Assembly: GCA_963740355.1 (NCBI GenBank)
Contig: CAVUDW010000002.1
Span: 1,472,001 to 1,536,000 of the forward strand
From: an uncultured Gemmatimonadaceae bacterium
Lineage (GTDB): Bacteria > Gemmatimonadota > Gemmatimonadetes > Gemmatimonadales > Gemmatimonadaceae
Length of the DNA: 64,000 nt
Direction of reading: 5' to 3'
The notes below the pieces were generated by a model. It was given only the letters and a program-made list of their open reading frames with translations. It did not search any database and had not been told where the DNA came from. Positions 10,122 to 59,387 of this stretch are shown here, one piece after another. How positions within the stretch are numbered: position 1 is the first letter of the stretch; each line of letters begins with the position of its first letter. Position numbers and translations under genes: made by a program.

Positions 10122-10338
10122 GTACAGCGCAAACGGCGCTCAAGTAGCGCAGGAGCATGGGGTTAGCCTCCGATCAAGGGGTCGGAGATCTTGATCGGGG
10201 ATGTTTGACGCCAAATCGATCAAGGGGTCAGAGATGTTGATCGGGGAAATTTGACGTCAAACCGTTGCGGTGGATGGTGTTAGCCTCCGATCAAGGGGTC
10301 AGAGATCTTGATCCGATGATGGGGCAGAAATCCTGCTC
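10122..10338 (+). repeat. repeat array A of the 25-bp hairpin family (3 clear copies, 1 degenerate)
   Basis: Cores GATCAAGGGGTC(A/G)GAGAT(C/G)TTGATC at 10172, 10218 and 10289; degenerate copy at 10315-10338; leading GTAC at 10122. Confidence 0.92.
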
Positions 10339-10344
10339 CCAAGC

Positions 10345-11076
10345 CTACGCGCCGCGCTTCGCCCAGCGATACATGTAGGTCGGTTTGCGCCGACCGCCAA
10401 TACGGTGATCGGGCAGTCGCTCGACGAGCCCGAGTTCGAGCATTCGCTTCTGGAAATTACGCCGGTCGAGTGTGCGGCCCAGCACAGTCTCGTGGAGCTT
10501 CTGTAGTTCGGGCATCGTGAATGATGCGGGCAGCAGATTCGCCTCGAGTGGCAGGTCGTCGATCTGGGACCGCACCGCCATGAGCGCGCGCGCCACCATC
10601 TCATCGTGATCGATGATGAGCGCCGGTCGCTCCGCGAGGTCCCACCACTCGACGGATCGGGTCCAGGCATTCGGTGCGACCGTCGCACGACTGGAGTCCA
10701 CCACCGCGACGTAGCCGACGGAGACGACACGACCCAGCACCCAATGGTCGTGCGGCGCGTCAACGCCCATCGCGCGCAGTGCATTGGCGACAACCGCCTC
10801 GCCTCGCGCTGGCCCACCGAAGGTGTGGAACTGGCGCAGCGCAGTGTCCGACAGCCCGGTCATCTCGCGCAGCACACGGGTCGCGGCGTCATCGATCGAT
10901 TCCTCGCGGCGCACGTAGCCCCCTGGGAGCGACCAGTCGCCGGTTCCCTGGGACTGCATCAGCAGGACCTTCAGTGCGCCGGCGTGGGCACCGAAGATCA
11001 CGCTGTTCACCGAGAGGTGCGGCAGGCAGTCCCGGTCCAGTTCGACAAGGAGGTTCGAGAAGTCGACGGCGCTCAT
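10345..11076 (-). CDS. NrtR-family (Nudix + winged helix) transcriptional regulator
   Basis: N-terminal Nudix-like domain (WSLPGGYV...ESIDDAATRVLREMTGL) and C-terminal FTMPELQKLHETVLG..LDRRNFQKRML wHTH. Confidence 0.88.
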   Translation of the reverse strand: MSAVDFSNLLVELDRDCLPHLSVNSVIFGAHAGALKVLLMQSQGTGDWSLPGGYVRREESIDDAATRVLREMTGLSDTALRQFHTFGGPARGEAVVANALRAMGVDAPHDHWVLGRVVSVGYVAVVDSSRATVAPNAWTRSVEWWDLAERPALIIDHDEMVARALMAVRSQIDDLPLEANLLPASFTMPELQKLHETVLGRTLDRRNFQKRMLELGLVERLPDHRIGGRRKPTYMYRWAKRGA

Positions 11077-11094
11077 GGTCAAACCATAGGTGAT

Positions 11095-11139
11095 GTGTAT
11101 TGACTACACAATAACCGCCGGCTAGTGTACCTCGTACAC
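11095..11139. promoter_or_regulatory. two putative NrtR-type operator palindromes
   Basis: GTGTA-ttgac-TACAC (11095-11109) and GTGTAC-ctc-GTACAC (11125-11139). Both fit GT-N7-AC and lie between the divergent regulator and glucosidase genes. Confidence 0.7.
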
Positions 11140-11186
11140 ATCCCGGCCGGTCTCGTGTTCGGCCTTCGCTTCCTTCCGGACGCCGC

Positions 11187-13634
11187 ATGCGCCGACGACT
11201 TGCACACGCCCTTCTGTTTGCCGGGTTCACCGGCACTGCGGCTCGCGCCGCGATTGCACAGACCGCGGTCCCCTCGCTCCCGCAACTCGGCCGTGCGCCG
11301 CTGCGCGCCGTCGTTGCCGCCCTCTCCGATTCCGAGAAGGTGCGTCTCGTCGTGGGACGCGGGCTGATTCTCCCCGAGGGCATGCCGACGAACATGCTGC
11401 CGCCGGGTATGCTGGGCGGCGCGCGCACCGCGGACGATCGCCCGCTGCGGCTGCCTGGATCGGCTGGTGAAACGCACACGGTGCGACGCTTCGGCATCCC
11501 GGCGATCACGCTGTCGGACGGGCCGGCCGGTGTGCGAATCGATCCGATCCGCACCGGTGCCAACGGCAAGCCGGACAGTTCACGGACGTTCTACGCCACG
11601 GCGTTCCCGGTCGGGACTCTGCTCGCGTCGTCGTGGGACACGGCGCTCGTGCGGCGCGTTGGTGTGTCGTTCGGCCAGGAAGCGCGCGACTACGGTGTCG
11701 ATGTGTTGCTGATGCCGGGCATGAACCTGCACCGCAATCCGCTTGGCGGCCGCAACTTCGAGTACTACTCGGAGGATCCGCTCGTGACTGGGCTGATGGC
11801 GTCGGCGATGGTCGAGGGGTTGCAGTCGGCGGGGGTCGGCGCGTCAGTCAAGCACTTCGTAGCGAATGAGCAGGAGTTCAATCGCATGCGGATCAACTCC
11901 GCAATCGGCGAACGCGCGTTCCGTGAGCTCTACCTGCGTCCGTTCCAGACCGTCGTTCGACGTGCGAAGCCATGGACGGTGATGTCGTCGTACAATCTCG
12001 TCAACGGTGTGCACACGGCCGAGAATCCGGAACTGCTGAATGACATCCTTCGTGGTGAATGGTCGTTCGGTGGGCTCGTGATGAGTGACTGGTTCGGTGG
12101 TGAAGATCCGGTCGCGATGGTGAATGCCGGGAACGACCTCGTGATGCCGGGCACTGGCGCACAGGAAACCGCATTGCGCGCTGCACTCGCGAGCGGCAAG
12201 CTGTCGCGCGCCGCACTCGACGCGAGTGTCACACGCGTGCTCGAGCTGGTGCTCCGCTCGAACACCTTCCGCAAGGTTGCTGCGTCTGAACGCCCGGATT
12301 TGCGTGCGCACGCCGCCGTCGCCCGACAGGCGGCAGCCGAGAGCATGGTGCTATTGCGTAATGAATCGATTGGCACCGGTGCGTCGGCGCGTCCCGCGTT
12401 GCCGCTCGCGTCCGGGCAAACGGTCGCAGCGTTCGGCAACACGTCGTACGACCCGATCGCCGGCGGCACGGGCAGCGGCAACGTGAATCGTGCATACACG
12501 ATCTCGGTGGTGCAGGGACTGGATGCGGCCAAGGCTCGCATCGATACCTCGCTCAGTGCCACCTATGCGCGCTATCTCGCAACGGCCCGCTTGAAGCTGC
12601 CGCCAACCGGTCAGATGAACTTCTTCGCGCCGCCACCAGCGATTCAGGAAATGCAGTTGGATGCGGCCGTCGTGACAGAGGCTGCGGCACGCGCCGATGT
12701 CGGCCTGATCACGCTTGGACGCATCGCCGGTGAAGGCGGCGATCGCAAGGTCGCCGATGACTTTGCGCTGAAGGCGTCCGAGCGTGCGCTGATCGAGCAG
12801 GTATCGACGGCATTCCACGCCAAGGGCAAGCGTGTGGTGGTGGTGCTGAACATTGGCGGCCCGATCGAGATGGCAAGCTGGCGTGGCCAGGTTGATGCGA
12901 TCCTGCTCGCGTATCAACCGGGGCAGGAGGGAGGTCACGCCATCGCCGACGTACTGCTCGGCGCGGTGAATCCATCCGGCAAACTCGCAACGTCGTTCCC
13001 GATGTCGTACGAAGACATCCCCTACGGCGCGGACTTTCCCGGCCGCGTTCGCGCTGGTGCAGCGGCACCGAGCAACCCGATGAGTGGCCAGGCGTCGGAC
13101 AACTCGTACAACGAAGGCGTGTTCGTCGGCTATCGGTACGCGAGTACGTTCGGCAAGGCGCCGGCGTATGCGTTCGGCTTTGGGTCGAGCTACACGACGT
13201 TCCGGACCGGCGGGCTGCAGGTCACCGGTACGCCGACCATCGCTGCTGGGTCCATGACAGTGAAGGTGACGGTGACGAACACCGGCACCGTCGCCGGCCG
13301 CGAAGTGGCGCAGCTGTACGTCACCGCGCCGCGTGGCGCACTCGACATGCCGGAGCGTGAGTTGCGGGCCTTCGCGAAGACCCGGCTCCTCGCACCTGGG
13401 GCTTCAGAGACGCTGACCTTCCGACTCTCGGCTGCCGACATCGCGTCCTTCGATCCGTCGGCCGCGGCGTGGGTTGCCGAGCCGGGCACGTACACGGTGC
13501 GTGTGGCGAATTCGTCGGCCGCTGAGGGCGTTCATGCGACGGTGGCTGTTGCGAACCGCGTCATCGTCGAGCGTACGCGACATCTGGTCGCGCCGACGGC
13601 GCCGATTGCCGAGTTGAAGGCGCCGACGCGGTGA
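11187..13634 (+). CDS. secreted GH3 beta-glucosidase/xylosidase with C-terminal Fn3-like domain
   Basis: Signal peptide; DGPAGVR, GRNFEYYSEDP, KHFVANEQE, nucleophile motif VMSDW, VNPSGKL, EVAQLY. Confidence 0.92.
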   Translation: MRRRLAHALLFAGFTGTAARAAIAQTAVPSLPQLGRAPLRAVVAALSDSEKVRLVVGRGLILPEGMPTNMLPPGMLGGARTADDRPLRLPGSAGETHTVRRFGIPAITLSDGPAGVRIDPIRTGANGKPDSSRTFYATAFPVGTLLASSWDTALVRRVGVSFGQEARDYGVDVLLMPGMNLHRNPLGGRNFEYYSEDPLVTGLMASAMVEGLQSAGVGASVKHFVANEQEFNRMRINSAIGERAFRELYLRPFQTVVRRAKPWTVMSSYNLVNGVHTAENPELLNDILRGEWSFGGLVMSDWFGGEDPVAMVNAGNDLVMPGTGAQETALRAALASGKLSRAALDASVTRVLELVLRSNTFRKVAASERPDLRAHAAVARQAAAESMVLLRNESIGTGASARPALPLASGQTVAAFGNTSYDPIAGGTGSGNVNRAYTISVVQGLDAAKARIDTSLSATYARYLATARLKLPPTGQMNFFAPPPAIQEMQLDAAVVTEAAARADVGLITLGRIAGEGGDRKVADDFALKASERALIEQVSTAFHAKGKRVVVVLNIGGPIEMASWRGQVDAILLAYQPGQEGGHAIADVLLGAVNPSGKLATSFPMSYEDIPYGADFPGRVRAGAAAPSNPMSGQASDNSYNEGVFVGYRYASTFGKAPAYAFGFGSSYTTFRTGGLQVTGTPTIAAGSMTVKVTVTNTGTVAGREVAQLYVTAPRGALDMPERELRAFAKTRLLAPGASETLTFRLSAADIASFDPSAAAWVAEPGTYTVRVANSSAAEGVHATVAVANRVIVERTRHLVAPTAPIAELKAPTR

Positions 13635-13647
13635 TCGAGCGGTTGGT

Positions 13648-14009
13648 GTACGGCGCGAAGGACTGGTAAGTCGCTGGTGGAGATGGCGTTAGCCACCGAT
13701 CAAGGGGTCAGAGATCTTGGTCGGGGGATTCCGGCGGTAAGTCGTTGCGGCGCATCACGTTAGCCGCCGATCAAGGGGTCAGAGATCTTGGTCGGGGGAT
13801 TCCGGCGGTAAGTCGTTGCGGCGCCTCGCGTTAGCCACCGATCAAGGGGTCAGAGATCTTGGTCGATCAAGGGGTCAGAGATCTTGGTCGCGGGATTCCG
13901 GCGGTAAGTCGTTGCCGCGCCTCGCGTTAGCCACCGATCAAGGGGTCAGAGATCTTGCTCCGGCACCGAGCAAGATCTCTGACCCCTTGATCGCGCTGGC
14001 CCCGTGATC
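13648..14009 (+). repeat. repeat array B: five direct copies plus one inverted copy (transposase-free miniature element)
   Basis: Direct cores at 13698, 13769, 13840, 13865 and 13936; inverted core at 13968-13992; leading GTAC at 13648; degenerate half-copy ending at 14009. Confidence 0.93.
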
Positions 14010-14052
14010 GCTGCGCTCTTGCTCGGCAGACCACGACGCGCTTCCTCGCCCG

Positions 14053-15306
14053 CTACTCGTACCGCAACGCGTCCACCGGATCCAGCCGCGCCGCACGGTT
14101 GGCGGGAATGATGCCGAACAACACGCCGACGAAAATCGAGGACGTCACCGCCACGATCGTCAGCGTGACAGGAAAGCCGGTGGTGATCTCAAGCAACACC
14201 GTGGCGAGTTTGCCGAGCGCGCCGCCCAGCACGACACCGAGTATTCCACCAATGCCCGTCAACGTCGCGGCTTCGACCAGGAACTGCAGGCGGATGTCGC
14301 CGGTGGTGGCGCCGAGCGCCTTGCGCAGGCCGATCTCGCGCGTGCGATCGGTGACCGACACCATCATGATCGCCATCACGCCGATGCCCCCCACCAGCAA
14401 CGCGACGCTCGACAGCACGATCAACACGAGGAAGAAGACGCTGGTGAGGCTGTTGAAGGTGTCGAGCACCTGATCCTGCGTCACGAGGTCGAAGGTGTTC
14501 TTGTCGCGCGGCCGCAATTTGCGTCCTGCGCGCAGCGTCACCGTCACGTTCGCCTGCGCGTCACTCACTGCGACGCCGGGCTTCGGCTTGACGGGAATCC
14601 AGAGGCCGTTGGTTCGATCGATCTGGAAGCCCTTGTCGAGCGTGCGATAGGGGAGAATCGCACCGATCTCCGAGCCCGGCGGCGAGAAGATATTCCCCGG
14701 CTGCACATACACACCGATCACACGGTATGGTCGGCCACCGACTTTCACCAACTTGCCGATCGGCTCGAGACGCGCGAAGACCTTTTCCGCGATGGCATCA
14801 CGGAGCACTACCACGGGATCACCGCCCACGACTTCGGCGTGTGTGAACCATCGACCGGAGGCGAGCTCACCGCCCTGAATCTCCGTGAAGCCTTCATCGG
14901 CGCCGAAGATCGCGACTGTCTGCGTGCGTGATCCTTCGTACTCCACACGCGCCAGAGTCTGGCCCCACAGTGATGCGTAGGCAATACCTGGCAGTGCACG
15001 AATGCGCTGCGCCTCGACATCGGTGAGGTCGGGCCGAATGCGGATGTATTTCGGCAGGCGATCCGGGTTCACGGGCGTCTGCGAAAACACCTTCAGTACG
15101 TAGAACGTGGTCGGGCCAGCGATCTCGATGGTGCGCACGATCTGATCGCGGATGCCTTGCACGAGGCTCGCCATCGTCATCACGGTCGAGACACCGATAA
15201 CCACACCAAGAATGGTCAGCGCCGAGCGCAGCTTGCTGGCGCGAATGGCGGCAAGCGCGATCGCGACGTTCTGCCCGAGTTGCGAAACTGCGCGCGCCGT
15301 TGCCAT
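14053..15306 (-). CDS. MacB/FtsX-type ABC transporter permease
   Basis: LRSALTILGVVIGV, GGIGVMAIMMVSVTDRTREIGLRKALGA, PANRAARLDPVDALRYE. Confidence 0.92.
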   Translation of the reverse strand: MATARAVSQLGQNVAIALAAIRASKLRSALTILGVVIGVSTVMTMASLVQGIRDQIVRTIEIAGPTTFYVLKVFSQTPVNPDRLPKYIRIRPDLTDVEAQRIRALPGIAYASLWGQTLARVEYEGSRTQTVAIFGADEGFTEIQGGELASGRWFTHAEVVGGDPVVVLRDAIAEKVFARLEPIGKLVKVGGRPYRVIGVYVQPGNIFSPPGSEIGAILPYRTLDKGFQIDRTNGLWIPVKPKPGVAVSDAQANVTVTLRAGRKLRPRDKNTFDLVTQDQVLDTFNSLTSVFFLVLIVLSSVALLVGGIGVMAIMMVSVTDRTREIGLRKALGATTGDIRLQFLVEAATLTGIGGILGVVLGGALGKLATVLLEITTGFPVTLTIVAVTSSIFVGVLFGIIPANRAARLDPVDALRYE

Positions 15307-15309
15307 CGG

Positions 15310-16551
15310 CTATTCCGACCGCAACGCGTCGATCGGATCGAGGCGTGCAGCGCGCGCGGCGGGATAGACGCCGAAGAGCACGCCCACGCCCGCACCGAGT
15401 GCGATCGCGACCGTTATCGACCACGGCGTCACCCGTGCCGGGAGCGGAGAGAGGGTGGCCACCAGCCAGGCCAACAACGCACCCAAGGCGAGGCCGAGTA
15501 TGCCGCCGAGGGCGGAGACGAACACCGACTCGGCGAGGAACTGGCGCTGGATGTCGCTGCGCGAGGCGCCAACCGCCATGCGAATCCCGATCTCGCGCGT
15601 GCGCTCCGTGACCGACATCAACATGATGTTCATGATCACCACGCCACCCACCACGATGCCGATGGCAACGACGGCGGGGATGATCGAGAAGAGTGTCTTG
15701 GTCAGCTTCTTCCAGAAGTCGACCAGTGCGTCCGCAGTCTCGATCGTGAAGTCGTCAGGCTCGCCGGGCCGCAGCCGGTGCGCCAGCCGCATCGCCTCCT
15801 GCGCGCGATTCATCACGCTCTTCATTGCCGCCGGATCGCTGACCTTGACGCTGATGGTCGTCGTCAGCCGTCGACCGTAGATCGACTCGAAGGCTGGAAT
15901 CGGCATCAGCACGAAGCCGTCGAAGCTTTGGCCGAGCACGCGGCCCTTCGGCGCCACCACGCCCGCGATCGTGAAGAGTTCGCCGCGAATCCGGATGCTC
16001 TGCCCGATCGGATCGACACCTTCGAAGAGATTCTTCGCGATGTCGTTGCCCACGACCACGACATGGCGCCGCTCGCGGATGTCGAGGTCCGTGAGTGGTG
16101 ATCCCGCCTCGAACACGTAGTCCTGCACGCGCTGGAAATCCGGCGTCACGCCGAAGATCATGGCGCTGCCGACGGCACGGTCACGCCAGGTGATGTCGGC
16201 CAACGGGGTGGGGTAGCCGGACTGCAGGCTGATGGCCGCCGCGTCGGGAAGCGCCTCCTCGATCACGCTGGCGTCGAGCTGCGAAATCAGCGGACGTTTC
16301 CGGATCTTCAGCAGCATCTCGTCGTCCACCAGGCCCAGCGAAATCGGGCCGCGGCGAACCTGGAACACATCCTTCCCGATCATCGAGCCGGCGACCTGCT
16401 CGCTGACGTAGACGTTCATGCCGTTGATGATCGCGATCACTGCGACCAGGAAGGCCACCGAGACCATGATGCCGAGCAGCGTGAAGAAGGCGCGAAACTT
16501 GTTGGCGCGAAGCTGCGTGAAGGCGGTCAGGAAAACGTCATTGAGGCGCAC
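15310..16551 (-). CDS. MacB/FtsX-type ABC transporter permease
   Basis: FRAFFTLLGI, IMNIMLMSVTERTREIGIRMAVGA, YPAARAARLDPIDALRSE. Start at GTG 16551 is inferred. Confidence 0.9.
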   Translation of the reverse strand: MRLNDVFLTAFTQLRANKFRAFFTLLGIMVSVAFLVAVIAIINGMNVYVSEQVAGSMIGKDVFQVRRGPISLGLVDDEMLLKIRKRPLISQLDASVIEEALPDAAAISLQSGYPTPLADITWRDRAVGSAMIFGVTPDFQRVQDYVFEAGSPLTDLDIRERRHVVVVGNDIAKNLFEGVDPIGQSIRIRGELFTIAGVVAPKGRVLGQSFDGFVLMPIPAFESIYGRRLTTTISVKVSDPAAMKSVMNRAQEAMRLAHRLRPGEPDDFTIETADALVDFWKKLTKTLFSIIPAVVAIGIVVGGVVIMNIMLMSVTERTREIGIRMAVGASRSDIQRQFLAESVFVSALGGILGLALGALLAWLVATLSPLPARVTPWSITVAIALGAGVGVLFGVYPAARAARLDPIDALRSE

Positions 16552-16660
16552 CCTGCAATCATAACCCGCGCGGCGGGGACGGCTGAAACAGCCGGCTGCG
16601 ACACTCGTAGAATGGGTTGCTCGCAGAGGACCATGCACTCACCGTCGCCTGCCAACCGCC

Positions 16661-17707
16661 ATGTTTTCAGTCCGTTCGGCTGTCACCTCTCTCCTGGGCG
16701 CCGCCCTCTGCGCTGCAGCGCCCGTGGCACTGCAGGCCCAGCGCGAGGAGCCACCCGCGTCCGGCGATCGCCCGACACGCGCACCGATTTCCATCGGCAA
16801 CTACCCGGACGTCGCGGGGCTGCGGCTCAACTTTCGTGACCGGAATCTGGAGCAGGTGCGTGGCATCAACGCCACCATCTGGCAGCCGTATGAGCCGGCC
16901 ACCGGCATCGTCCGCGGCCTGTCACTCGGGTTGCCGCTGACGGGCGCTGGTCGGGTCGATGGGCTGGCCATCGGCGTGCTCGGTGCCTCGGCCTACGGCA
17001 AGATCCGCGGCATTGCGCTCGGCGGAATCGGCGTCGGATCGGGTGGCGGGATGCGTGGGCTGTCGATCGGCGGCATCGGTGTCGGCTCGGGCGGTGACCT
17101 GGATGGAATCACGCTCGGAGGGATTGGAGCGGGTGGCGGTGGGAATGCGCGCGGCCTGATCGCGGGTGGCATAGGCGCCGGCGTTGGCGGCAGCATGCAC
17201 GGCATTGCGATCGGCGGCATCGGTGTCGGCGCAGGTGGCGGCGTGCGCGGACTCGCCATCGGCGGCATCGGCGTCGGCACGAGCGGCAAGTTGTCGGGCA
17301 TCGCGATCTCCGGAATCGGCACGGGTGCTGGTGGCGACATCACTGGCCTGACCATCAGCGGCATCGGTACCGGCACCGGGGCGACGATGCGCGGCATCGG
17401 CATCGCAGGCGTCGGGTTGGGAGCGCCGCGGTTAGTCGGTGGCTTTCTCGCCCCGATGGTGGGTTCACTGAATGCCCACGCAATCGTGATCGCACCGATC
17501 TTCTTCAAGATCGAGAAGGGCGGCAGCTTCCGCGGTGGCGCTCTGAGCGCGGTGAACGACGTGCGCGGCACACAGCGTGGTCTGACGATCGGCATCGTCA
17601 ACTATGCGCGCACGCTGCACGGCCTCCAGCTCGGCGTGATCAACATCATCGCCGACCAGAAGTCACACTCGGTATTGCCGATCGCGAATTGGGGCAGCGG
17701 GCGATAG
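16661..17707 (+). CDS. exported Gly-rich repeat protein (probable beta-solenoid; resembles LA_2272-like surface repeat proteins)
   Basis: Signal peptide, about ten 16-aa repeats of the G(I/L)xIGGIGxGxGGxxx type, and a C-terminal GLTIGIVNYA..LHGLQLGVINI...LPIANW. Confidence 0.75.
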   Translation: MFSVRSAVTSLLGAALCAAAPVALQAQREEPPASGDRPTRAPISIGNYPDVAGLRLNFRDRNLEQVRGINATIWQPYEPATGIVRGLSLGLPLTGAGRVDGLAIGVLGASAYGKIRGIALGGIGVGSGGGMRGLSIGGIGVGSGGDLDGITLGGIGAGGGGNARGLIAGGIGAGVGGSMHGIAIGGIGVGAGGGVRGLAIGGIGVGTSGKLSGIAISGIGTGAGGDITGLTISGIGTGTGATMRGIGIAGVGLGAPRLVGGFLAPMVGSLNAHAIVIAPIFFKIEKGGSFRGGALSAVNDVRGTQRGLTIGIVNYARTLHGLQLGVINIIADQKSHSVLPIANWGSGR

Positions 17708-17715
17708 CCTGACTT

Positions 17716-18111
17716 CTACTCGGCGTCTGCAGCCGCTGCTTTCGGGGTCGCCTGGCGCAAACTCCGTCGCAGGTACCAGGCACTCGCTGCCGCGATTGCA
17801 ATGAGGAGCGCCGCGCCGGTGCGCAGACCATCGCGGGCTGCAGGTTCGAGTTCCAGCAACGGGCCGAGCGCGATGATCATCGCCGCAGCGACCGCGCCCC
17901 AGATGCCAATCGCCCACGAGGTCCATTCGGCGCGCTGCCAGATGCCGATCACCGCGGCGAGCGACAATCCGCCGACCGCGAACTGCCAGTACATCAACGC
18001 GGCCGGCGCTTCCGCGGGGTGACGCAGGATCCTGAGCGCCTCGTTGAGCGCGTTGCCGCCGACGCAGGTGAACATCACGATCAGGAGCCAGTGGCCAATC
18101 GGTCGCCGCAT
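17716..18111 (-). CDS. small hypothetical membrane protein (about 4 TM)
   Basis: Four hydrophobic segments; GAGGA-like RBS upstream; fills the gap between neighbouring genes. Confidence 0.7.
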   Translation of the reverse strand: MRRPIGHWLLIVMFTCVGGNALNEALRILRHPAEAPAALMYWQFAVGGLSLAAVIGIWQRAEWTSWAIGIWGAVAAAMIIALGPLLELEPAARDGLRTGAALLIAIAAASAWYLRRSLRQATPKAAAADAE

Positions 18112-18157
18112 CGGGTGTTCCTCGCGGATGTGAAACGCAGCTTACGGCCGGAAACAG

Positions 18158-18195
18158 AAACGCCGGTCCGCTCGAGGAAGCAGACCGGCGTTTTT
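18158..18195 (-). terminator. probable intrinsic terminator after the exporter operon (possibly bidirectional)
   Basis: Inverted repeat AAACGCCGGTC...GACCGGCGTTT with T-rich tails, just downstream of the permease stop at 18207. Confidence 0.65.
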
Positions 18196-18206
18196 GTGCA
18201 TGGAGA

Positions 18207-19457: not shown

Positions 19458-19461
19458 GTGA

Positions 19462-20706: not shown

Positions 20707-20708
20707 CG

Positions 20709-46784: not shown

Positions 46785-46834
46785 AGCCAACAACGTTCCA
46801 GCCGCGACCAGCACCTGCAGGTCGCGGATGGAAC

Positions 46835-49713: not shown

Positions 49714-49833
49714 ACGTATCCGGGAAGGCGAGAAATCCTTGCTGCAGGCACGGGAATATATGCCTCGGGCACGATTCGCGTTCCCGCGACGGCTTTCGCT
49801 TCTCCGGGCCCCCGGGTCCGGTAAGTTCAGCGC

Positions 49834-51231: not shown

Positions 51232-52517
51232 CGGGTGTGGTGACGACGGAATCGCAGGCGATCATGGCGCGTGCGCGTCAGCTCTTTCCTGGTGGCGTGA
51301 ATTCGCCCGTGCGTGCGTTCGGTGGAGTCGGTGGCGAACCGTTCGTGGTGCAGCGTGGCGAGGGGCCGTACATCTGGGATGTCGACGGCAATCGCTACAC
51401 CGACTTCGTGTTGAGCTGGGGGCCGCTGGTGCTGGGCCATGCCGCGCCGGTGGTGCTGGATGCGCTCCATGAAGTGATGCAGCGCGGTACCAGCTTCGGC
51501 ATTCCGACCGGACTCGAAGTGCAGTTGGCGGAGCTCATCACGCAGCGCATGCCGCACATCGAGATGCTGCGCTTCACCAGCAGCGGCACCGAGGCGGCGA
51601 TGAGCATCGCACGTGTCGCGCGTGCGGCCACGGGTCGTGATGCGATCCTCAAGTTCGACGGCTGTTATCACGGCCACGCCGACTCGTTCCTCGTGAAGGC
51701 TGGTTCTGGGGTCGCGACGCTCAACCTGCCCAATTCACCGGGGGTGCCTGCGGCGCTGGCGGCGCTGACCTACACGGCGCCGTTCAATGACCTCGACGCG
51801 GTGCGCGCGGTGGCGAAGCAGGTGCCGTTGGCGGCCATCCTGCTCGAGCCGATCATTGGCAATGCCGGCTTCATCGAGCCGCTGCCTGGTTTTCTCGAAG
51901 GCCTGCGGCAGATCGCCGATGAAACCGGGGCGCTGCTGGTGTTCGACGAGGTGATGACCGGTTTCCGCATCGCGTGGGGTGGCGCCGTCGAACGATTCGG
52001 CGTCACGCCCGACCTGACGGCGTTCGGCAAGGTGATTGGCGGCGGGCTCCCGGTGGCGGCCTATGGTGGCCGACGTGAGTTGATGCAGCAGGTGGCGCCG
52101 AGTGGCTCGGTCTATCAGGCCGGTACGCTCAGTGGCAATCCACTGGCCATGGCCGGTGGATTGGCGACGCTCAAGTCGCTGACACCCGAGTTGCACACGA
52201 TCATCACCAACCGGACCGGTGTGCTGGTGCAGGGGCTGCGCGACATCATGGCACGCGAAGGTGTGCCGTTCCACGCGTCGCACGCAGGATCGATGTGGGG
52301 CTTCTTCTTCCATCCGGGCCCGGTCACGAACTTTGCGGAAGCGCGCACCAGTGATGTGCCGCTCTTCAACAAGTTCTTCCACGCCGCGCGTGAGCGTGGC
52401 GTGTACCTCGCGCCGTCGGCGTTCGAGGCAGCCTTCATGAGCGCGGCGCACGGCGACGATGTCGTTGCCGACACGCTCGAACGGCTTTCCGATGCGATCC
52501 GCGCTGCGAAAGCGTAG
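51228..52517 (+). CDS. hemL: glutamate-1-semialdehyde 2,1-aminomutase
   Basis: PGGVNSPVRAF, SGTEA, GCYHGH.D, FDEVMTGFR, GKVIGGGLP, YQAGTLSGNP. Confidence 0.96.
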   Translation: MTGVVTTESQAIMARARQLFPGGVNSPVRAFGGVGGEPFVVQRGEGPYIWDVDGNRYTDFVLSWGPLVLGHAAPVVLDALHEVMQRGTSFGIPTGLEVQLAELITQRMPHIEMLRFTSSGTEAAMSIARVARAATGRDAILKFDGCYHGHADSFLVKAGSGVATLNLPNSPGVPAALAALTYTAPFNDLDAVRAVAKQVPLAAILLEPIIGNAGFIEPLPGFLEGLRQIADETGALLVFDEVMTGFRIAWGGAVERFGVTPDLTAFGKVIGGGLPVAAYGGRRELMQQVAPSGSVYQAGTLSGNPLAMAGGLATLKSLTPELHTIITNRTGVLVQGLRDIMAREGVPFHASHAGSMWGFFFHPGPVTNFAEARTSDVPLFNKFFHAARERGVYLAPSAFEAAFMSAAHGDDVVADTLERLSDAIRAAKA

Positions 52518-53643
52518 CCACGGGCTGCTGTTCGCATCGCTCGCCTGCCTGGCGGGCGCCCCATCGCACGCGCTCCTCGCGCAGGAGCGGGTGCAGGCGC
52601 GTGTGCCCGAGCGTGCCACGGAGCGCGTCGACAGCGTGATCGAGTCCGGCCGGAATAGGGCGACCGTTGGCACGCACCTTGGCGACAAGACCATCCGCGT
52701 GCTCCTCGGACGGACGGCGCCGGGCGCGATGTCGAGCCGGAATGCCATCGGCATCGTGGAGTGGAACGGCCGACGCTATCGCGGTGAGGTCGACTTCGTC
52801 CCGGATGGTGGCACGGTGGCGGTGATCAACCGCCTCGATCTCGAGGAGTACCTGCGCGGCGTGCTGCCGGGTGAGATCGGCTCGCGTGATCCGCGCGATC
52901 GTGCCGCGCTGCAGGCGCAGGCAGTGGCGGCGCGTTCGTACGCCGCGGCGCGCATGGGCGAGCGTCGGCCGCTCTATGACGTCACCTCCACGGTTTCGGA
53001 TCAGGTGTACGGCGGCGTGACCGTGGAGCGACCCGAGACCGACGACGCGGTGCGCGCCACGCGCGGGCTGGTGCTCACCTGGGGTGATCGGATCATCACG
53101 GCACCGTATCACTCACATGGCGGCGCGATGACGGCCGGCGTCGATGAGGTGTTCTGGAAGCGTGGTGCCGAGCCGTACCTGCGTCCGGTAGACGACCACA
53201 CGTTGTCGGGTGGCTGCTTCTGTGACGCGAGCGGGAGCCGAGGGTGGGAGCGACGCTTCAGCACGGTGGACATCAACCGGCTGCTGGCGCAGTACGGCTC
53301 GGATGCCGGCGTAGCGACCGCGGGCGACGTGCGAGCGGTTCGCGTCGCGGCCCGGGGGCCATCGGGACGGGTGACGGCACTCGAGATCGAGACCAGCACC
53401 GGCCGCGTCACCTTGCGGGGCAATGACATTCGATCGGTCCTGCGCACCGACGGCGCGATCCTGCCCAGCACGAACTTCTCCCTCGAGTCGCTCGGCACCA
53501 CGATCGTGCTGCGGGGCGTTGGCAATGGGCATGGGGTTGGCATGTCGCAGTGGGGGGCGATTGGGCGTGCGAGGGCAGGGCAGGATGCCCGGTCGATTCT
53601 CGCCGCGTATTATCCCGGGACACGATTGTCGCCGCTGATGTAG
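52492..53643 (+). CDS. SpoIID/LytB-domain peptidoglycan lytic transglycosylase
   Basis: LEEYLRGVLP.E, ALQAQAVAARSY, DQVY.G, GNGHGVGMSQWGA, IL..YYPG. Start uncertain. Confidence 0.88.
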   Translation: MRSALRKRSHGLLFASLACLAGAPSHALLAQERVQARVPERATERVDSVIESGRNRATVGTHLGDKTIRVLLGRTAPGAMSSRNAIGIVEWNGRRYRGEVDFVPDGGTVAVINRLDLEEYLRGVLPGEIGSRDPRDRAALQAQAVAARSYAAARMGERRPLYDVTSTVSDQVYGGVTVERPETDDAVRATRGLVLTWGDRIITAPYHSHGGAMTAGVDEVFWKRGAEPYLRPVDDHTLSGGCFCDASGSRGWERRFSTVDINRLLAQYGSDAGVATAGDVRAVRVAARGPSGRVTALEIETSTGRVTLRGNDIRSVLRTDGAILPSTNFSLESLGTTIVLRGVGNGHGVGMSQWGAIGRARAGQDARSILAAYYPGTRLSPLM

Positions 53644-53796
53644 TCCGAACCTGGCCTGCCAGCGGGTGGGCGTGCGTCGCCAGCGTCATGGCGTGTCCGC
53701 GTTGCAGATTGTCCGAGTTGCAGGTCGCATGTTGCTGCCGGTCGTTCTGCGCCCCCGCGAGGGAGGCGCCATCGCTTTCCGCCCTCCTTGTACCGC

Positions 53797-54804
53797 ATGT
53801 CCAAGCCAGCCCTCCGGATCGGTGTCATTGGCGCCGGCGCCATTGCCCAACTCGCCCACCTGCCCGTGCTCTCGAAGATGCGCGGCGTGCAGTTGGTCGC
53901 ACTCTGTGACAATGACGGCGCCAAGGTGCGTGCGCTGGCCGATCGCTTCAGCGTGCCCGACACCTTCACCGACATCGAGGAGCTGCTCGAGTTCGAGGAG
54001 ATCGATGCGGTCCTGATCTCGACGCCGAACCATCTCCATGAGCCACACGTGCTGAGCGCCCTCAAGGCCAAGCGGCACGTGCTCTGCGAACGCCCGCTGG
54101 CCCTCACGACCAAGGGCGTGGAGCGGATCATCGCGGCGGCGGAGAAGCACGAGATGAAGGTGTTGGTCGGCCACAACCATCGGTTCCGCACCGAGGTCCA
54201 GAATCTCGAGAGCTTCATCCACGGTGGTGAGCTTGGCCGCCTGATCGGCATCCGTGCTGGCGCGTACAAGACGCGTCGAGGCGATGCAGGCTGGCGTTCG
54301 CGTCGCGCGGAAGCGGGCGGCGGCATCTTTCTCGACCAGGGCGTGCCGCTGCTCGATCTCGCCTGCTGGCTCGCCGACTTCCCCGATCCGGTGCGTGTCA
54401 CGGCCAGCATGGAACGTGGCAGCGGTGTGCGTTCGGTCGAGGATGCGATGTTCGTCCACGTGCAGTACGCATCAGGGCTGAGTGTCGCGATCGACACCGC
54501 ATGGGGCTACGTGGGTGAGGAGGATCGCTGGTGGTTCGAGGTGCTGGCCTCGAAGGGCACCGCGCGCCTGGCGCCACTGCGCGTGGTGAAGGACCTCAAC
54601 GGTCGCGCGGTGGATGTGTCGCCCACCGGCGCCGCGCAACGAGACAGCGCGTTCATCCAGAGTTATCGCGCCGAGCTGGCACACTTTGCCGCCGTGCTGA
54701 ATGGCGATGTCGCATATGAGCCGCCGGTGGACCAGATCGTCGTGCAGCGCCTCGTCGAGGCGATCTACCGCAGCGCCGAAGAGGGGAAGGAAGTCCGGCT
54801 GTGA
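53797..54804 (+). CDS. Gfo/Idh/MocA family oxidoreductase
   Basis: GVIGAGAIA, TPNHLH, HVLCERP, GGGIFLDQG. Confidence 0.9.
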   Translation: MSKPALRIGVIGAGAIAQLAHLPVLSKMRGVQLVALCDNDGAKVRALADRFSVPDTFTDIEELLEFEEIDAVLISTPNHLHEPHVLSALKAKRHVLCERPLALTTKGVERIIAAAEKHEMKVLVGHNHRFRTEVQNLESFIHGGELGRLIGIRAGAYKTRRGDAGWRSRRAEAGGGIFLDQGVPLLDLACWLADFPDPVRVTASMERGSGVRSVEDAMFVHVQYASGLSVAIDTAWGYVGEEDRWWFEVLASKGTARLAPLRVVKDLNGRAVDVSPTGAAQRDSAFIQSYRAELAHFAAVLNGDVAYEPPVDQIVVQRLVEAIYRSAEEGKEVRL

Positions 54805-56054
54805 CGCGGCTCGCAGGCGTGATGCGTGCCGTGCGACGCGTCGCGCTGCGGGCGAGCCTCGTGCTGTGCGCGGCGCTCGTGACGCTGGCCCGACCGCTGT
54901 CGGCGCAGCGCGAGATCGACTGGTCGACGAAACCCGTCTACCTCATGACGATGGGGCAGGGCGACGAGGTGTTCGAGAAGTTCGGGCACAATGCGATCGT
55001 GGTGTGGGACGATGCCGCGGGCCAGCCCCTCGTCTACAACTGGGGCATGTTCGACTTCGAACAGCCGAACTTCATCGGGCGCTTCCTCACCGGTGATACG
55101 AAGTACTGGATGCAGCCATTCTCGCTGATGCAGACGCTGCGCCTCTACCAGCAGCTGAATCGCAGCGTCAGCTTGCAGGAGCTGCAGCTGACCCCGTCGC
55201 AGAAGACTCGGTTGGTCGCGATGCTGGCCGAGAATGCGAAGGAAGAGAACAAGTATTATCGGTACGACTATTACCTCGACAATTGCAGCACACGAGCACG
55301 TGACGCCATCGATGCGGTGACCGGCGGCGCGCTCAAGCGTGCGATGCAGGCGCAGCCGGGGCAGGGGAGCTACCGGTGGCACACCCGTCGATTGCTGGCC
55401 TACAGCGCGCCGCTCTACTTCGGCAGCGAGCTCGTACTCGGCGTCGACGCCGATGCGCCGCTCACCGGTTGGGACGAGGCGTTCCTGCCGCAGTCGCTCT
55501 CGGAGTCGGTGAAGCGGATCGAGTTGCCGGCGGCGGAGGGCCTGCCCGCGCGGTTGTTGGCGGGACCGGTGGATACGCTCTTCCGCGCCGATCGCGGACC
55601 TGAGCCCGGCGGCGTCGACTGGCGGGTCGCGCTGGCGGCGCTGGTTGGTGTGGTGATTGGTGTCGTCTTGACTGGAATGATCCGCGTCGGGCGTGTCGCC
55701 GCGGCGACGGCGATGGCGGCGTGGAGTCTCGTGATCACACTGTTCGGCAGTGGAATGCTGCTTGCATGGTTCGCCACCAAGCACGTCTTCATGGCCAACA
55801 ATCCCAGTGTCGCGCTGGTGAACCCGGCGTGGCTGCTTGGCCTGGTTGCGGCGGTGATGGTGCTGCGTGGTGGGGTGCCGAAGGGGGTACGCAGTGCACT
55901 GCGCTGGTTGCTGGTGATCGCCGTCATCGGCATGGCTGGCGCCGTGCTGCTTGGCCACGCTGGAAGTGCGCTCGAGATTGCAGCGCTGGTGCTGCCCGCG
56001 CATGCTGCCGTCGTCTACGCTGCCGATCGATATCGACTGCGAACCCCTGACTGA
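54801..56054 (+). CDS. DUF4105 (Lnb-like) domain membrane protein
   Basis: FGHNAI, YNWGMFDF, YRYDYYLDNCSTR, FLP, then about 4 C-terminal TM helices. Confidence 0.8.
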   Translation: MTRLAGVMRAVRRVALRASLVLCAALVTLARPLSAQREIDWSTKPVYLMTMGQGDEVFEKFGHNAIVVWDDAAGQPLVYNWGMFDFEQPNFIGRFLTGDTKYWMQPFSLMQTLRLYQQLNRSVSLQELQLTPSQKTRLVAMLAENAKEENKYYRYDYYLDNCSTRARDAIDAVTGGALKRAMQAQPGQGSYRWHTRRLLAYSAPLYFGSELVLGVDADAPLTGWDEAFLPQSLSESVKRIELPAAEGLPARLLAGPVDTLFRADRGPEPGGVDWRVALAALVGVVIGVVLTGMIRVGRVAAATAMAAWSLVITLFGSGMLLAWFATKHVFMANNPSVALVNPAWLLGLVAAVMVLRGGVPKGVRSALRWLLVIAVIGMAGAVLLGHAGSALEIAALVLPAHAAVVYAADRYRLRTPD

Positions 56055-56055
56055 C

Positions 56056-57987
56056 GTGGTCACACACTACATCGTGCGGCTGGACCCGCTCGAGCTCGTG
56101 TTCAACACGAGGCCGATCACGGCCCTCCTCGGCTACACCGCCGACGAGTACGGCACGATGACGCTCGAGACGGTGAACCGCCTCATACATCCCGATGACG
56201 TACCCGCGCTGCAGGCGCACATCTCACGACTTCACCTGCTGGCGGATGGTGAAGTCGCGTTATTGCGGCACCGGATGCGCAATGCGGCCGGCGGCTGGGG
56301 GTGGATCGAAGTCCGCGACTCGGTCTTCACACGCACGGCCAGCGGCACGCCGGAACAGGTGATCGGGACGGCGCGTGAAGTCACCGCGCAGATGCGAACG
56401 GCGGAGGCGCTGGAGTCGAGTGAGGCCCGTCACCGCTTGTTGGTGGAAACCATGCTGCAGGGGGTGGTCCACCACGGCGCCGATGGGAGCATCATCGCGT
56501 TGAATCCCGCTGCGGAGCGCATCCTCGGCCGACCCCGCGATGACTTCATCGGCAGCGATCCATCACGCGAGGAGCAGCACACCATTCGTGAGGACGGTTC
56601 GGCGTTTCCTGGAGCGGAGCACCCATCGAGTGTGGCGCTTCGTACTGGTGCACCGATCCATGGCGTCGTCATGGGCGTCTACAACTGGGATCGGCGCGAG
56701 TATCGCTGGTTGAGCGTCGATGCGGTGCCACTGCGTCGTCCCGGAGAGTCGGTGCCGTACGAGGTCTACACCGTCTTCGAGGACATCACGGATCGCCTGC
56801 GGGCCGAAAAGGCGTTGCGCGACGCACACACGCGGAAGGATCATTTCATCGCCACGCTGGCGCATGAACTGCGGAATCCGCTGGCGCCGATTCGTCATGC
56901 CGTGGCCGTGCAGCAGCGTCGCGCAGCTGCCGCCGGTGATCCGGAACTGGCCTGGTCGCAGGCGATCATCGACCGACAGGTCGGACACATGTCGCGGTTG
57001 CTCGACGACCTGCTGGACGCGTCGCGGATCGCGAGCGGCAAGCTCGAACTGCGGCGCGAACTGGTCGGGTTGAACGCCGTCATCGCACAGTCGATCGAGA
57101 CGGCGCGACCGCAGATCGACGCGTTGCGGCATGCGCTGTCGGTGTCCTTGCCGACACCGGACGTTTACGTTGACGGCGACCCGATTCGTCTCGCACAGGT
57201 GTTCTCGAACCTGCTCACGAATGCTGCCAAGTACTCCGAGGCTGGTGGCAGCATCGCGGTGACAGCGAGTCGTGACGGGGACGGCGTGGCCGTCACCGTG
57301 CGCGATACTGGCATCGGCATCGATGCGGCGAACCTGACGCGAGTGTTCGAGATGTTCGGCCAGATCGATGCCGCGATCGATCGTTCGCAGGGCGGGCTCG
57401 GCATCGGACTCTCGCTGGCACAGGCGCTGGTGACGCTACACGGCGGCCGCATCACCGTGCAGAGCGACGGTCTGGGAAAAGGCACGTCATTCACGGTATT
57501 CCTCCCCACCTCTCCTGACGCAGCAATGCCAGACGAACAGTCGTCCACGCCGGAGCTTGCAGATCCTGTCACCCCGCGCCGGTTGCTGGTGGTGGATGAC
57601 AACCGTGACGGCTGTGATGCGCTCGCGACCCTGCTCGGCATGATGGGGTTCGAAGTGGCTACCGCCTATGACGGGCTGGAGGCCGTGGAGCGCGCCGTGG
57701 ACGGCACGCCGGACGTGGTGCTGATGGATGTTGGCCTGCCGCGCCTGAACGGCTACGAGGCCTGTACGGCGATCCGCGCCACCGTGGGTGGTGAGCGTAT
57801 CGTGATGCTGGCGGTGACCGGCTGGGGCGCGGCTGCCGACCTGCGCAACGCGACGCAAGCAGGGTTCGATGCCCACCTGGTGAAGCCGATCGACATGCAG
57901 TGGCTTGGCCAGCTGCTGCCGTTGCCGCGGTCGGAAGTGCAGCGGCTGGAGACGATCCGGCGGTTGCGGCTGGGGTACGAGGCGTGA
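56056..57987 (+). CDS. PAS-domain hybrid histidine kinase/response regulator
   Basis: Two PAS domains, LAHELRNPL, RL.QVFSNLL.NAAKY, GGLGIGL, receiver LVVDDN. Start at GTG 56056 is inferred. Confidence 0.9.
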   Translation: MVTHYIVRLDPLELVFNTRPITALLGYTADEYGTMTLETVNRLIHPDDVPALQAHISRLHLLADGEVALLRHRMRNAAGGWGWIEVRDSVFTRTASGTPEQVIGTAREVTAQMRTAEALESSEARHRLLVETMLQGVVHHGADGSIIALNPAAERILGRPRDDFIGSDPSREEQHTIREDGSAFPGAEHPSSVALRTGAPIHGVVMGVYNWDRREYRWLSVDAVPLRRPGESVPYEVYTVFEDITDRLRAEKALRDAHTRKDHFIATLAHELRNPLAPIRHAVAVQQRRAAAAGDPELAWSQAIIDRQVGHMSRLLDDLLDASRIASGKLELRRELVGLNAVIAQSIETARPQIDALRHALSVSLPTPDVYVDGDPIRLAQVFSNLLTNAAKYSEAGGSIAVTASRDGDGVAVTVRDTGIGIDAANLTRVFEMFGQIDAAIDRSQGGLGIGLSLAQALVTLHGGRITVQSDGLGKGTSFTVFLPTSPDAAMPDEQSSTPELADPVTPRRLLVVDDNRDGCDALATLLGMMGFEVATAYDGLEAVERAVDGTPDVVLMDVGLPRLNGYEACTAIRATVGGERIVMLAVTGWGAAADLRNATQAGFDAHLVKPIDMQWLGQLLPLPRSEVQRLETIRRLRLGYEA

Positions 57988-57996
57988 TGGGTGGGC

Positions 57997-58238
57997 GTAC
58001 ACGGGAATACCGGCGTAAGTCGTTGCACGGCCTGCGGTTAGGCGCCGATCAAGGGGTCGGAGATCTTGATCGATCAAGGGGTCAGAGATCTTGATCGGGA
58101 AAGTCTGGAGCTAAACACTTGCTCCGTAATGAGTTAGGCTCAGATCAAGGGGTCAGAGATCTTGATCGGGCGATTATGAAGCTAAATCGTTGCCCCTCTT
58201 CGCTTTAGGCTCAGATCAAGGGGTCAGAGATCTTGGTC
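57997..58238 (+). repeat. repeat array C (4 hairpin cores)
   Basis: Cores at 58047, 58072, 58143 and 58214 (spacings 25, 71, 71); leading GTAC at 57997. Confidence 0.93.
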
Positions 58239-58267
58239 GGCCGAATCGCGAGGAGTCGCGCATCGCA

Positions 58268-58978
58268 TTAGCGATGGTCGTTTTGCCAGCCCACACCCCT
58301 GCGATCGCCGCCGTGCTGCTGTGGCGTCACCCGGCGCTTCAACTGCGCCTCCAGCCGACGGAGCGCGCGGCTTTCACCCACTGCTGCACATCCGAGGCTC
58401 GCGGCGCGAATCGCCTCAATTTCTCGCCTTGGTGCATCCGCGCTGCAAAAGGCTCGATACGCAGCTTGTCGCGCGTCCGGCGTCATGCCGAGGGCATTGT
58501 ATGCACCGTGCGAGGTCAGGAGTTCGTCACAGCCCCCGTGTGCCAGGTGTCTGTGGCTCGACCACTCGTACTCCACCGCGTGGCGCACGATTCCAGCGCG
58601 AACGGGATTGAGGTCGATGTACCTACAGCACGCCAGAAAGTACCGATCGCTACCCACGATCATTGAGTGGAAGCGGCCGTCCCACAGAGTCCCGCTTCTG
58701 CGGTGCCGAGTATTCCAGTGTCGCACGAATCGACTGCCAACACGCTGCATGAGTCGCGAGGGACCGAGTGGATGCGACGCCGTAAGCAGAAGATGAATGT
58801 GGTTTGACATCAGCGCATACGCGTGCACGGCGCACGATGTGCTCCTGCTGGCGTGCATCAGGATTTCGCGGAAGTGCGCAAAATCCATTTCGTCGTGGAA
58901 CTTGAGCTCGCGATTGTGGCAGCGCTGAGTCAGGTGGATTGGAAAGCCTGGTGCAATGAGTCTTGGCATGCGCGCCAT
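58268..58978 (-). CDS. REP-associated-type tyrosine transposase (RAYT/TnpA-REP, Y1 HUH family)
   Basis: MARMPR...H.TQR..NR, AYALMSNHIHLL (HUH), G.LWDGRF.S, catalytic RYIDLNPVRAG, Y.WSS, plus a C-terminal extension. No tnpB nearby. Confidence 0.9.
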   Translation of the reverse strand: MARMPRLIAPGFPIHLTQRCHNRELKFHDEMDFAHFREILMHASRSTSCAVHAYALMSNHIHLLLTASHPLGPSRLMQRVGSRFVRHWNTRHRRSGTLWDGRFHSMIVGSDRYFLACCRYIDLNPVRAGIVRHAVEYEWSSHRHLAHGGCDELLTSHGAYNALGMTPDARQAAYRAFCSADAPRREIEAIRAASLGCAAVGESRALRRLEAQLKRRVTPQQHGGDRRGVGWQNDHR

Positions 58979-59204
58979 TTGCGCCTCGGTGCGTGAGCCG
59001 ACAGCTCGGTGGGAAACGCGTAAGGATGCCGCAGCCTCAAGCGCCGCAGACGGCGTGTGAACGACGCGATTCTATCGCTTGGCGCTTCTCAACACCGCAC
59101 CTGATTCGCGCATCGATCATCGCGTGCACGCCGGCGTATCATTCCTTCAGCCGTTTCGCGGTGGCGCAGCAGCAAAGGAGCACTGATCTGAGCGAGACTG
59201 AGCC

Positions 59205-59387
59205 GATCAAGATCTCTGACCCCTTGATCGAGACGTAAGGCTCGTACTACGAAGGCTTTAGCCCGCGAACTCGCCGATCAAGATCTCTGACCCCTTGATC
59301 GAGACGTAAGGCTCGTACTACTAAGGCTTTAGCCCGCGAACTCGCCGATCAAGATCTCTGACCCCTTGATCGGCTTTCACCTTGATC
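59205..59387 (-). repeat. repeat array D (3 inverted hairpin cores plus an outer half-copy)
   Basis: GATCAAGATCTCTGACCCCTTGATC at 59205, 59276 and 59347 (71-bp period); CTTGATC half-copy at 59381-59387. Confidence 0.93.

Follow-up and report, generated by a model that had tools for sequence, protein, structure and literature searches.

The link between the bacterial interspersed mosaic element (BIME) BIME-1 of Escherichia coli and integration host factor (IHF) reportedly goes back to an original paper by Boccard and Prentki in 1993. In BIME-1 (RIB/RIP), the sequence between two repetitive extragenic palindromes (REPs) is described as interacting with IHF (PMC2817692), and the same source gives a gene flanked by inverted copies of a palindrome as the hallmark of a REP-associated tyrosine transposase (RAYT). 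Two large REP super-families are defined by a GTAG or a CGTC head (PMC3733652). REPs with IHF sites have so far been an enterobacterial curiosity of unknown purpose. Here we describe a 71-bp unit that recurs in tandem in a 64,000-nt stretch of DNA from an uncultured member of the Gemmatimonadaceae (hereafter the window; G000:C2:1472001-1536000, i.e., contig C2 of genome G000, which has 5.45 Mb and 65% G+C). The arrays are built from two exactly abutting modules, a constant 25-nt hairpin (H) and a 46-nt linker (L), which together make up the 71 bp, and L carries a 25-bp dyad (D). We propose, at a probability of roughly 0.6 for the account as a whole, that the unit is a lineage-specific composite REP, in which the hairpin is coupled to a linker whose dyad would bind an IHF-like dimer.

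The hairpin and its transposase

Matches to H at three mismatches or fewer numbered 16 in the window, compared to none in 100 shuffled sequences. All hairpin starts and the 71-bp period named in a preliminary description of this DNA were recovered, and Tandem Repeats Finder reported period-71 arrays at 13687-13865, 58072-58244 and 59202-59372. The hairpin has a stem of 7-8 bp and a loop of 9-11 nt. Genome-wide, 207 copies in 45 clusters were found at four mismatches or fewer, a total that counts 2 palindromic sites on both strands. Same-strand neighbours (n = 138) were spaced by 71 bp in 70 cases, by 25 bp in 25 and by 72 bp in 8, with the remainder scattered. Because 71 bp dominates these spacings, the distribution of linker lengths is sharply peaked and not broad, in agreement with the rigid unit that had been proposed initially. 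Units within one array are near-identical, recent tandem duplicates, so that the period within an array is not independent evidence and it is the agreement between arrays that carries weight.

A RAYT gene lies within the window at 58268..58978 (minus strand), encoding an HUH/Y1 transposase of 236 aa that was identified by profile matches and by the HIH and Y..NP motifs in its translation. It matched PF01797 (Y1_Tnp) at 47.2 bits against a cut-off of 23 (48.9 bits in another search) and scored 79.7 bits on NCBIfam NF047646 (REP_Tyr_transpos), where the cut-off is 80. The gene is flanked by inverted arrays of H, one on the plus strand beyond its stop and one on the minus strand before its start. 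The first, array C (57997..58238, plus strand), begins 30 nt past the RAYT stop and is composed of GTAC, L, H, H, L, H, L, H, with hairpins starting at 58047, 58072, 58143 and 58214. The second, array D (59205..59371, minus strand), lies 226 nt upstream of the RAYT start, reads H, L, H, L, H (hairpin starts 59205, 59276 and 59347, all minus), and is thus inverted relative to array C. Homologues of the RAYT were found at 50–52% identity in two Gemmatimonadaceae metagenome-assembled genomes (MAGs) and at 34–38% in three gammaproteobacterial MAGs. At three of the six homologue loci examined, the gene stands between H(+) on its left and H(-) on its right; at a further one, L100, which ends just past the gene, H is on the left only. 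Between lineages, the outer stem pairs of H swap in a compensatory manner (GAT..ATC vs TTT..AAA).

A second RAYT gene was observed in the same genome (G000 C3:374781-375101; locus L002:1186-1860, minus strand; Y1_Tnp 32.7 bits), with inverted copies of a REP of its own on either side, which differs from H and has the core CCGGTGACAGTGCAC. This core also adjoins H copies in a relative (L054).

H is a short imperfect palindrome, extragenic and of high copy number. On a gene map built with a crude heuristic (GC3, the G+C content at third codon positions) that covers 81% of the genome, 39 of the 45 clusters were intergenic, 6 touched the end of an open reading frame (ORF) and none lay inside one. 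Spacers between convergent genes, which represent 20% of all spacers, held 17 of the clusters. No GTAG or CGTC head adjoins the stem, where the flank ..TTAGCCTCC is directly followed by GATC.., and such a head is not required of a REP. Given a RAYT with inverted flanking copies, 207 copies in the genome and no cluster inside an ORF, H qualifies as a REP in the strict sense, and it is very probably the REP of the window RAYT. The initial wording, by which the unit was bipartite “rather than a simple REP”, therefore says too little of the hairpin, as H is a strict REP with its own RAYT in the window. By analogy with the solved RAYT and IS200/IS605 enzymes, H would be recognised by the RAYT as a single-stranded hairpin.

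On the leading-strand sequence, 124 copies of H were counted compared to 83 on the opposite strand, and in 26 of 40 arrays the upstream gene was co-oriented with the array and read into it. Both biases are mild, and they are confounded with each other and with clustering. Contigs C2 and C3 (2.55 Mb each) show a GC skew that is positive almost throughout C2 and negative on C3, and they look like the two replichores of one chromosome. Four public sequencing runs matched with small shares (0.05-0.10), none of them listed as RNA. Public sequencing-run contigs that aligned to positions 13000-14700 of the window contained no joints and no array-spanning piece, and were uninformative on expression or polymorphism.

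A conserved dyad in the linker

A 46-nt linker or leader with the pattern YAA-N19-TTA-N6 precedes 11 of the 16 window hairpins, and YAA-N4-TTG is present in 7 of these 11; both regularities had been pointed out in the preliminary description. When all 71 genome linkers at 71-bp spacing were taken, with no selection for the motif, NAA-N19-TTR-N6 was found in 67 and the strict YAA..TTA form in 51, while the 4 linkers without NAA-N19-TTR belong to a different linker class and all lie in a single cluster. Among 48 non-redundant linkers, A17, A18 and T38 were each kept in 47 and T39 in all 48, far above the neighbouring positions at ~0.4-0.8. The initially described motif was thus truly conserved, yet drawn too narrowly, the full motif being a 25-bp palindrome, TAA-N4-TTG-N5-CAA-N4-TTA, at L positions 16-40 with its centre at position 28. 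In the linkers, its outer triplets hardly vary, conservation of the left inner TTG is 0.76-0.91, and the right inner triplet is weaker, with a consensus of CAT. The corresponding register of the linker (i+j=56) stands out with 0.475 of positions paired, compared to 0.16-0.34 for most other registers.

Copies of D were located in all four arrays of the window. In array A they lie at 10141..10165 (leader; 5 of the 12 specified positions differ) and 10258..10282 (3 mismatches). In array B they occupy 13667..13691 (leader, 3 mismatches), 13738..13762 (1 mismatch), 13809..13833 and 13905..13929 (2 mismatches each), and in array C 58016..58040 (leader, 2 mismatches), 58112..58136 (1 mismatch) and 58183..58207 (2 mismatches). 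The two copies of array D, at 59236..59260 and 59307..59331, have 4 mismatches each, and the first of them has kept the outer TAA/TTA and lost the inner triplets.

The position of the dyad is constrained on one side. The gap from D to the 5' end of H was 6 nt in 86 of 87 cases, whereas the gap from the preceding H to D was 15 nt in 67, 16 nt in 11 and 19, 20, 26 or 38 nt in 6. A change of length is thus tolerated in the upstream spacer, but not within D or between D and H. One explanation without any function would be that the pattern is simply what has decayed most slowly in a single founder linker, multiplied together with the hairpin. It is true that all L units derive from a single composite, which only G000 has, and that copies within arrays are near-identical. 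However, free linker positions have decayed to ~40-60% consensus while A17, A18, T38 and T39 were kept in 47-48 of 48 linkers, insertions and deletions cluster in the 15-nt spacer rather than the 6-nt spacer, and D exists independently of the element, which makes a mere remnant very improbable.

No covariation was detected in the linker, where the best register is paired to just the extent that column composition would give, and its folding energy was no better than that of column shuffles (minimum free energy (MFE) z = -0.6 for RNA and -1.4 for DNA). A reading of the linker as a second hairpin, based on compensatory pairs seen by eye, was refuted by this same column-composition expectation and by the MFE shuffles. 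As there is no covariation, a protein site fits the linker better than a fold. A structured RNA or a CRISPR-like array would be suggested by a direct-repeat hairpin with a 46-nt “spacer” and by arrays that often follow a co-oriented gene (the 26 of 40 mentioned above), but the “spacers” are homologous to each other, Rfam gave no match at gathering thresholds, the linker shows neither covariation nor extra stability, and the cognate RAYT already explains the hairpin. No search aimed at cas genes was made, and we consider this explanation the least probable of all those weighed here.

D also occurs away from the hairpin. Scored over 12 specified positions, with 11 altered-spacing patterns as controls, D was found in G000 at one mismatch or fewer 29 times near H and 23 times as a stand-alone site (0-3 for the spacing controls), and at two mismatches or fewer 70 times near H and 56 times alone (controls 0-21). 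Stand-alone TAA-N19-TTA was counted 41 times, compared to 7 for N18 and 11 for N20; 35 of these 41 sites lie outside the crude ORFs, and their inner positions share the preference for TTG and CAA. Each of the 19 other genus genomes contains an exact D, as do 33 of the 41 genomes in a sample of the order (G000 counted). Relatives account for 70 such sites, compared to 3 matches of the reversed control, and genomes without any copy of H are among them (e.g., G004, G005 and G006). One stand-alone D (G000 C2:2077329-2077353; L091:2530-2554) is located in the divergent spacer between a DUF1499 gene and a gene for an LpoB-like lipoprotein. It was recovered in the orthologous spacer of all four relatives checked, with a different central N5 in each, and the 20 letters flanking it recur in 11 relatives. 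This D is a candidate regulatory site, and no regulator gene adjoins it.

A dyad that stands alone, is spread across the order and is kept at an orthologous site with a variable N5 bears the marks of a protein site whose centre is left uncontacted. D is a host cis-element, of which L is a REP-borne copy, and we consider it likely that D is a protein-binding dyad, as predicted from its pattern of conservation. The second, spacing-constrained site that the preliminary description had proposed for the linker is in this respect well supported, with its free N4 and N5, its lack of covariation and its stand-alone and orthologous copies. Alternatively, TAA/TTA (and TTAG) could be recognition, guide or cleavage signals of the RAYT, similar to the GTAG head and CT cleavage site of E. 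coli REPs or to the guide tetranucleotides of IS608. HUH enzymes are described as using short motifs near a hairpin (PMC3479197), and the 6-nt distance between D and the hairpin foot in 86 of 87 cases, the GTAC leader of 11 arrays and the exact module joints would all suit such signals. A site that stands alone in genomes without H (G004, G005, G006) and at a conserved orthologous position, and that is symmetrical where a single-strand guide need not be, argues against them, and we judge this alternative improbable.

A candidate binder and the gammaproteobacterial counterpart

IHF sites are described as containing WATCAA, a TTR 4 bp further 3', and two base steps (mostly AA) 9 bp apart at which prolines intercalate (PMC1874591), and T44 of the TTR as lying 6 bp from the nearest kink (PMC5829579). 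D has the TT at positions 8-9 and the AA at 17-18, that is, 9 bp apart, and the TTA at 23-25, together with the mirror image of this arrangement, and the middle T of its TTA is 6 bp from the AA step. CAA-N4-TTR with AA/TT steps 9 bp apart is accordingly present in D, whereas the full consensus WATCAANNNNTTR was not found in G000 linkers. In a symmetrical IHF site, the WAT would fall in the free centre. To judge from its letters, D is a symmetrised IHF core without the WAT. An IHF-like site had been suggested initially on the basis of YAA-N4-TTG; its geometry, the single IHF-like gene of the host and the canonical consensus in gammaproteobacterial linkers (see below) speak for that suggestion, and the missing WAT in G000 linkers speaks against it.

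G000 has only two genes of the HU/IHF family, one of them IHF-like, and no alpha/beta pair. The IHF-like gene (G000 C2:2446755-2447108; L089) encodes a protein with an acidic tail that scores 91.7 bits against the alpha profile, 91.0 against beta and 57 against HU, and which is a member of neither the ihfA nor the ihfB subunit family. Its stretch I-E-V-R-G-F-G aligns to I-E-I-R-G-F-G of the E. coli beta chain, in which Glu44 and Arg46 would read the TTR. It is encoded in single copy in 41 of 41 relatives, with 92–99% identity in the genus and 79–88% across the order, a distribution that matches the spread of D. From a homodimeric IHF-like protein, a symmetrical site is expected. The other gene is an HU-like paralogue (G000 C2:591882-592187; L090) with a long C-terminal tail rich in lysine and alanine.

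The core of H was detected in 10 of 19 other species of the genus at other spacings, namely as inverted doublets 26 bp apart and as direct repeats 28-34, 42 or 57 bp apart; inverted doublets dominate in one relative. A 19-nt H core is also present in Algicola and Alteromonadaceae MAGs (L026-L080) and at loci L097-L099, where the RAYTs are only 34–38% identical to the window RAYT, and this sharing of a REP core across phyla points to either an old family or horizontal transfer. At the gammaproteobacterial loci, 16 of 19 copies of H are joined by a linker of rigid length (32 nt) to a second hairpin, which is truncated. The letters of TCAA-N4-TTA are kept at 0.88-1.0 in these linkers, with a perfect WATCAR-N4-TTR in 11 of 16. 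Two of the three gammaproteobacterial MAG genomes encode both ihfA and ihfB above the curated cut-offs. The symmetrical D was not above its control in any of the three (3 vs 5, 2 vs 4 and 0 vs 2). Within the same REP family, an asymmetric, canonical IHF consensus thus seems to accompany hosts with a heterodimer, and a symmetrical core the host with one IHF-like gene.

A different dimeric DNA-binding protein, either a global regulator or a nucleoid protein, could also own D as its operator, which the REP would then have captured. A palindrome with free N4 and N5 and stand-alone sites close to promoters fits many dimeric regulators, the WAT of the IHF consensus is missing from the linkers, and the stand-alone sites at one mismatch or fewer are unevenly distributed, with 16 on C2 (7 of them within the first 190 kb) compared to 5 on C3. 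However, the spacing of D equals the IHF geometry exactly, the REP linkers of the gammaproteobacterial relatives hold the canonical IHF consensus at the equivalent place, and no regulator gene adjoins the conserved stand-alone site. This explanation is rather unlikely, while remaining the strongest competitor to an IHF-like dimer. That the IHF-like protein itself is the binder we put at about even odds, judging from site geometry and gene content. Strict sigma-54-like sites had a D (one mismatch or fewer) within 200 bp upstream in 2 of 24 cases compared to 17 of 2000 random intergenic windows, which is a weak hint of an association.

Several observations weigh against the composite REP with an IHF-bound dyad. 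The RAYT falls 0.3 bits short of the NF047646 equivalog cut-off, and two of the six homologue loci (L096 and L097) have no H at four mismatches or fewer. In the linkers, the right inner triplet is mostly CAT or worse, and the 11 window dyads differ from D by 1-5 mismatches. The WAT of WATCAA is absent from the G000 linkers, whose positions 26-28 are G/C-rich, and the IHF-like protein scores below the curated cut-offs (91.7 vs 111 and 91.0 vs 115). D could be bound instead by the lysine-tailed HU-like paralogue or by a dimeric regulator unrelated to it, and the sigma-54 link comes from 2 sites. The gap between D and H, in addition, is not universal, being N6 in G000 and 1 nt at the gammaproteobacterial loci, while in one relative D lies beside the 3' end of H. 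For this reason the phasing of dyad and hairpin, on which the preliminary description had placed weight and which is indeed rigid in the G000 lineage, may reflect descent plus local constraint. Searched for as AA-N19-TTR-N6-hairpin, the fused D-N6-H unit occurs 94 times in G000. Of the 19 other genus genomes, 18 yielded no match, and G010 yielded one that does not represent an L. The fused unit is thus lineage-specific and young relative to the REP family.

Array architecture, origin and known systems

Arrays A and B both lie between convergent ORFs. Array A (10122..10313, plus strand) reads GTAC, L, H (10172), a 21-nt truncated linker, H (10218), L, H (10289), between the ORFs 9239-10096(+) and 10345-11082(-). 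Array B (13648..13992, plus strand) reads GTAC, L, H, L, H, L, H, H, L, H, a 7-nt spacer and an inverted H (13968-13992), with hairpin starts at 13698, 13769, 13840, 13865, 13936 and 13968(-), between the ORFs 11187-13634(+) and 14053-15306(-). In the genus relatives, the gene flanking array B has ~80–84% identity to that of G000, and synteny across the array is lost in most of them. Typical forms in the genome are GTAC-L-H-L-H-L-H-H-L-H and H-L-H-L-H. The left end of an array is GTAC-L-H in 11, another L leader in 4 and a bare H in 29; exact H-H joints, with a 25-bp period, occur in 25 cases; and one array has a period of 75-76 bp, corresponding to GTAC+L+H. Hairpins are mostly direct within arrays, and inverted pairs occur mainly at array ends. 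That GTAC or GATC serves as an insertion target is a hypothesis.

Two further arrangements were observed. Four arrays are closed by H, 7 nt and an inverted H (window 13936-13992; G000 C3:1791239, C3:1948701 and C3:2073269), which together form a 57-nt near-perfect palindrome resembling the doublet of a REPIN (REP doublet forming hairpins). A second linker class, unrelated to L, was seen at G000 C2:1949040-1949560 and at C3:1948733-1948930. It is 32 nt long, or 46 nt with a 14-nt partial duplication of the hairpin, and it is attached to a hairpin variant that starts with CATC and is preceded by GGAAAGA.

The simplest account of the origin of the unit would be that one of its two parts, H or a host D site, arrived 6 bp from the other, and that the pair was then amplified. 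As H copies are identical, expansion by 71 bp needs nothing beyond recombination or slippage between them, and arrays could grow and shrink in steps of L plus H in this way. In addition, the RAYT may cut and join site-specifically at module borders, as suggested by the exact H-H, H-L and GTAC-L joints, by the GTAC left end of 11 arrays and by the array with a 75-76-bp period. The E. coli RAYT is reported to cleave and to carry out strand transfer (PMC3479197). D is most likely bound by a sequence-specific, DNA-bending dimer, for which the single IHF-like protein is the best candidate, and its homodimer would read a symmetrical core in which two AA/TT kink steps lie 9 bp apart and each is followed outwards, after 4 bp, by a TTR. 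The product would be a row of bent nucleoprotein sites beside hairpins at gene ends. Speculatively, the element might benefit through hairpin extrusion or RAYT access, and the host through a topological or transcriptional barrier like that attributed to E. coli BIMEs.

To find REP and IHF-type site combined again in an unrelated REP family, and in two phyla, would argue that bending beside a hairpin matters to the element or to its host, and this argument would be stronger if the shape of the site follows the IHF type of the host. We tentatively suggest, though we would give it somewhat less than even odds, that members of the REP/RAYT family across phyla have repeatedly fused their hairpin to a host IHF site, and that the captured site mirrors the host protein, being asymmetric with a heterodimer and symmetrised with a single IHF-like gene; on this reading, D would be the first specific recognition site to be predicted for a homodimeric IHF, and the 71-bp arrays would be series of sharp bends, induced by protein and each placed 6 bp from a hairpin able to extrude. 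D offers a test of how a single-subunit IHF-like protein reads DNA. It is also a candidate regulatory motif, with some 50 or more stand-alone sites per genome, in an order with almost no known cis-elements. In a literature search of a limited collection, no paper linked Gemmatimonadetes to REPs, REPINs or IHF, and none described a palindromic site for a homodimeric IHF.

Compared to known systems, the unit shares with REP/RAYT systems and REPINs (Nunvar 2010; Bertels and Rainey 2011) a single RAYT with inverted flanking REPs and hundreds of extragenic copies, and the second RAYT of G000 with its own REP fits the same scheme. In contrast to these systems, there is no GTAG or CGTC head, and the direct tandem array dominates over the inverted doublet. 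IS200/IS605 elements (IS608, ISDra2) are similar in their HUH/Y1 enzyme, their hairpin recognition (predicted here), their short motifs at fixed distances, their exact ends and a leading-strand bias (124 vs 83 in G000), whereas the 71-bp units carry no transposase gene of their own. D shares with the canonical IHF site WATCAANNNNTTR the CAA-N4-TTR and the AA steps 9 bp apart, but it is symmetrical, with both halves present, and has neither WAT nor A-tract. Closest of all is E. coli BIME-1 (RIB/RIP), with which the unit has in common RAYT-tied REPs, an IHF-type motif in a linker whose length is fixed, and a location at gene 3' ends and in convergent spacers. The regular REP spacing of a BIME is present (71 bp in 70 and 25 bp in 25 of the 138 spacings), but its alternating orientation is not, so that on this feature the definition of a BIME does not apply, the REPs being mostly direct. 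Unlike BIME-1, the G000 arrays have mostly direct REPs in long 71-bp tandem arrays, a symmetrical 25-bp dyad without WAT and no GTAG head, in a host of another phylum, a member of the Gemmatimonadaceae with one IHF-like gene. The unit is a new variation on the theme of a REP or BIME with an IHF site.

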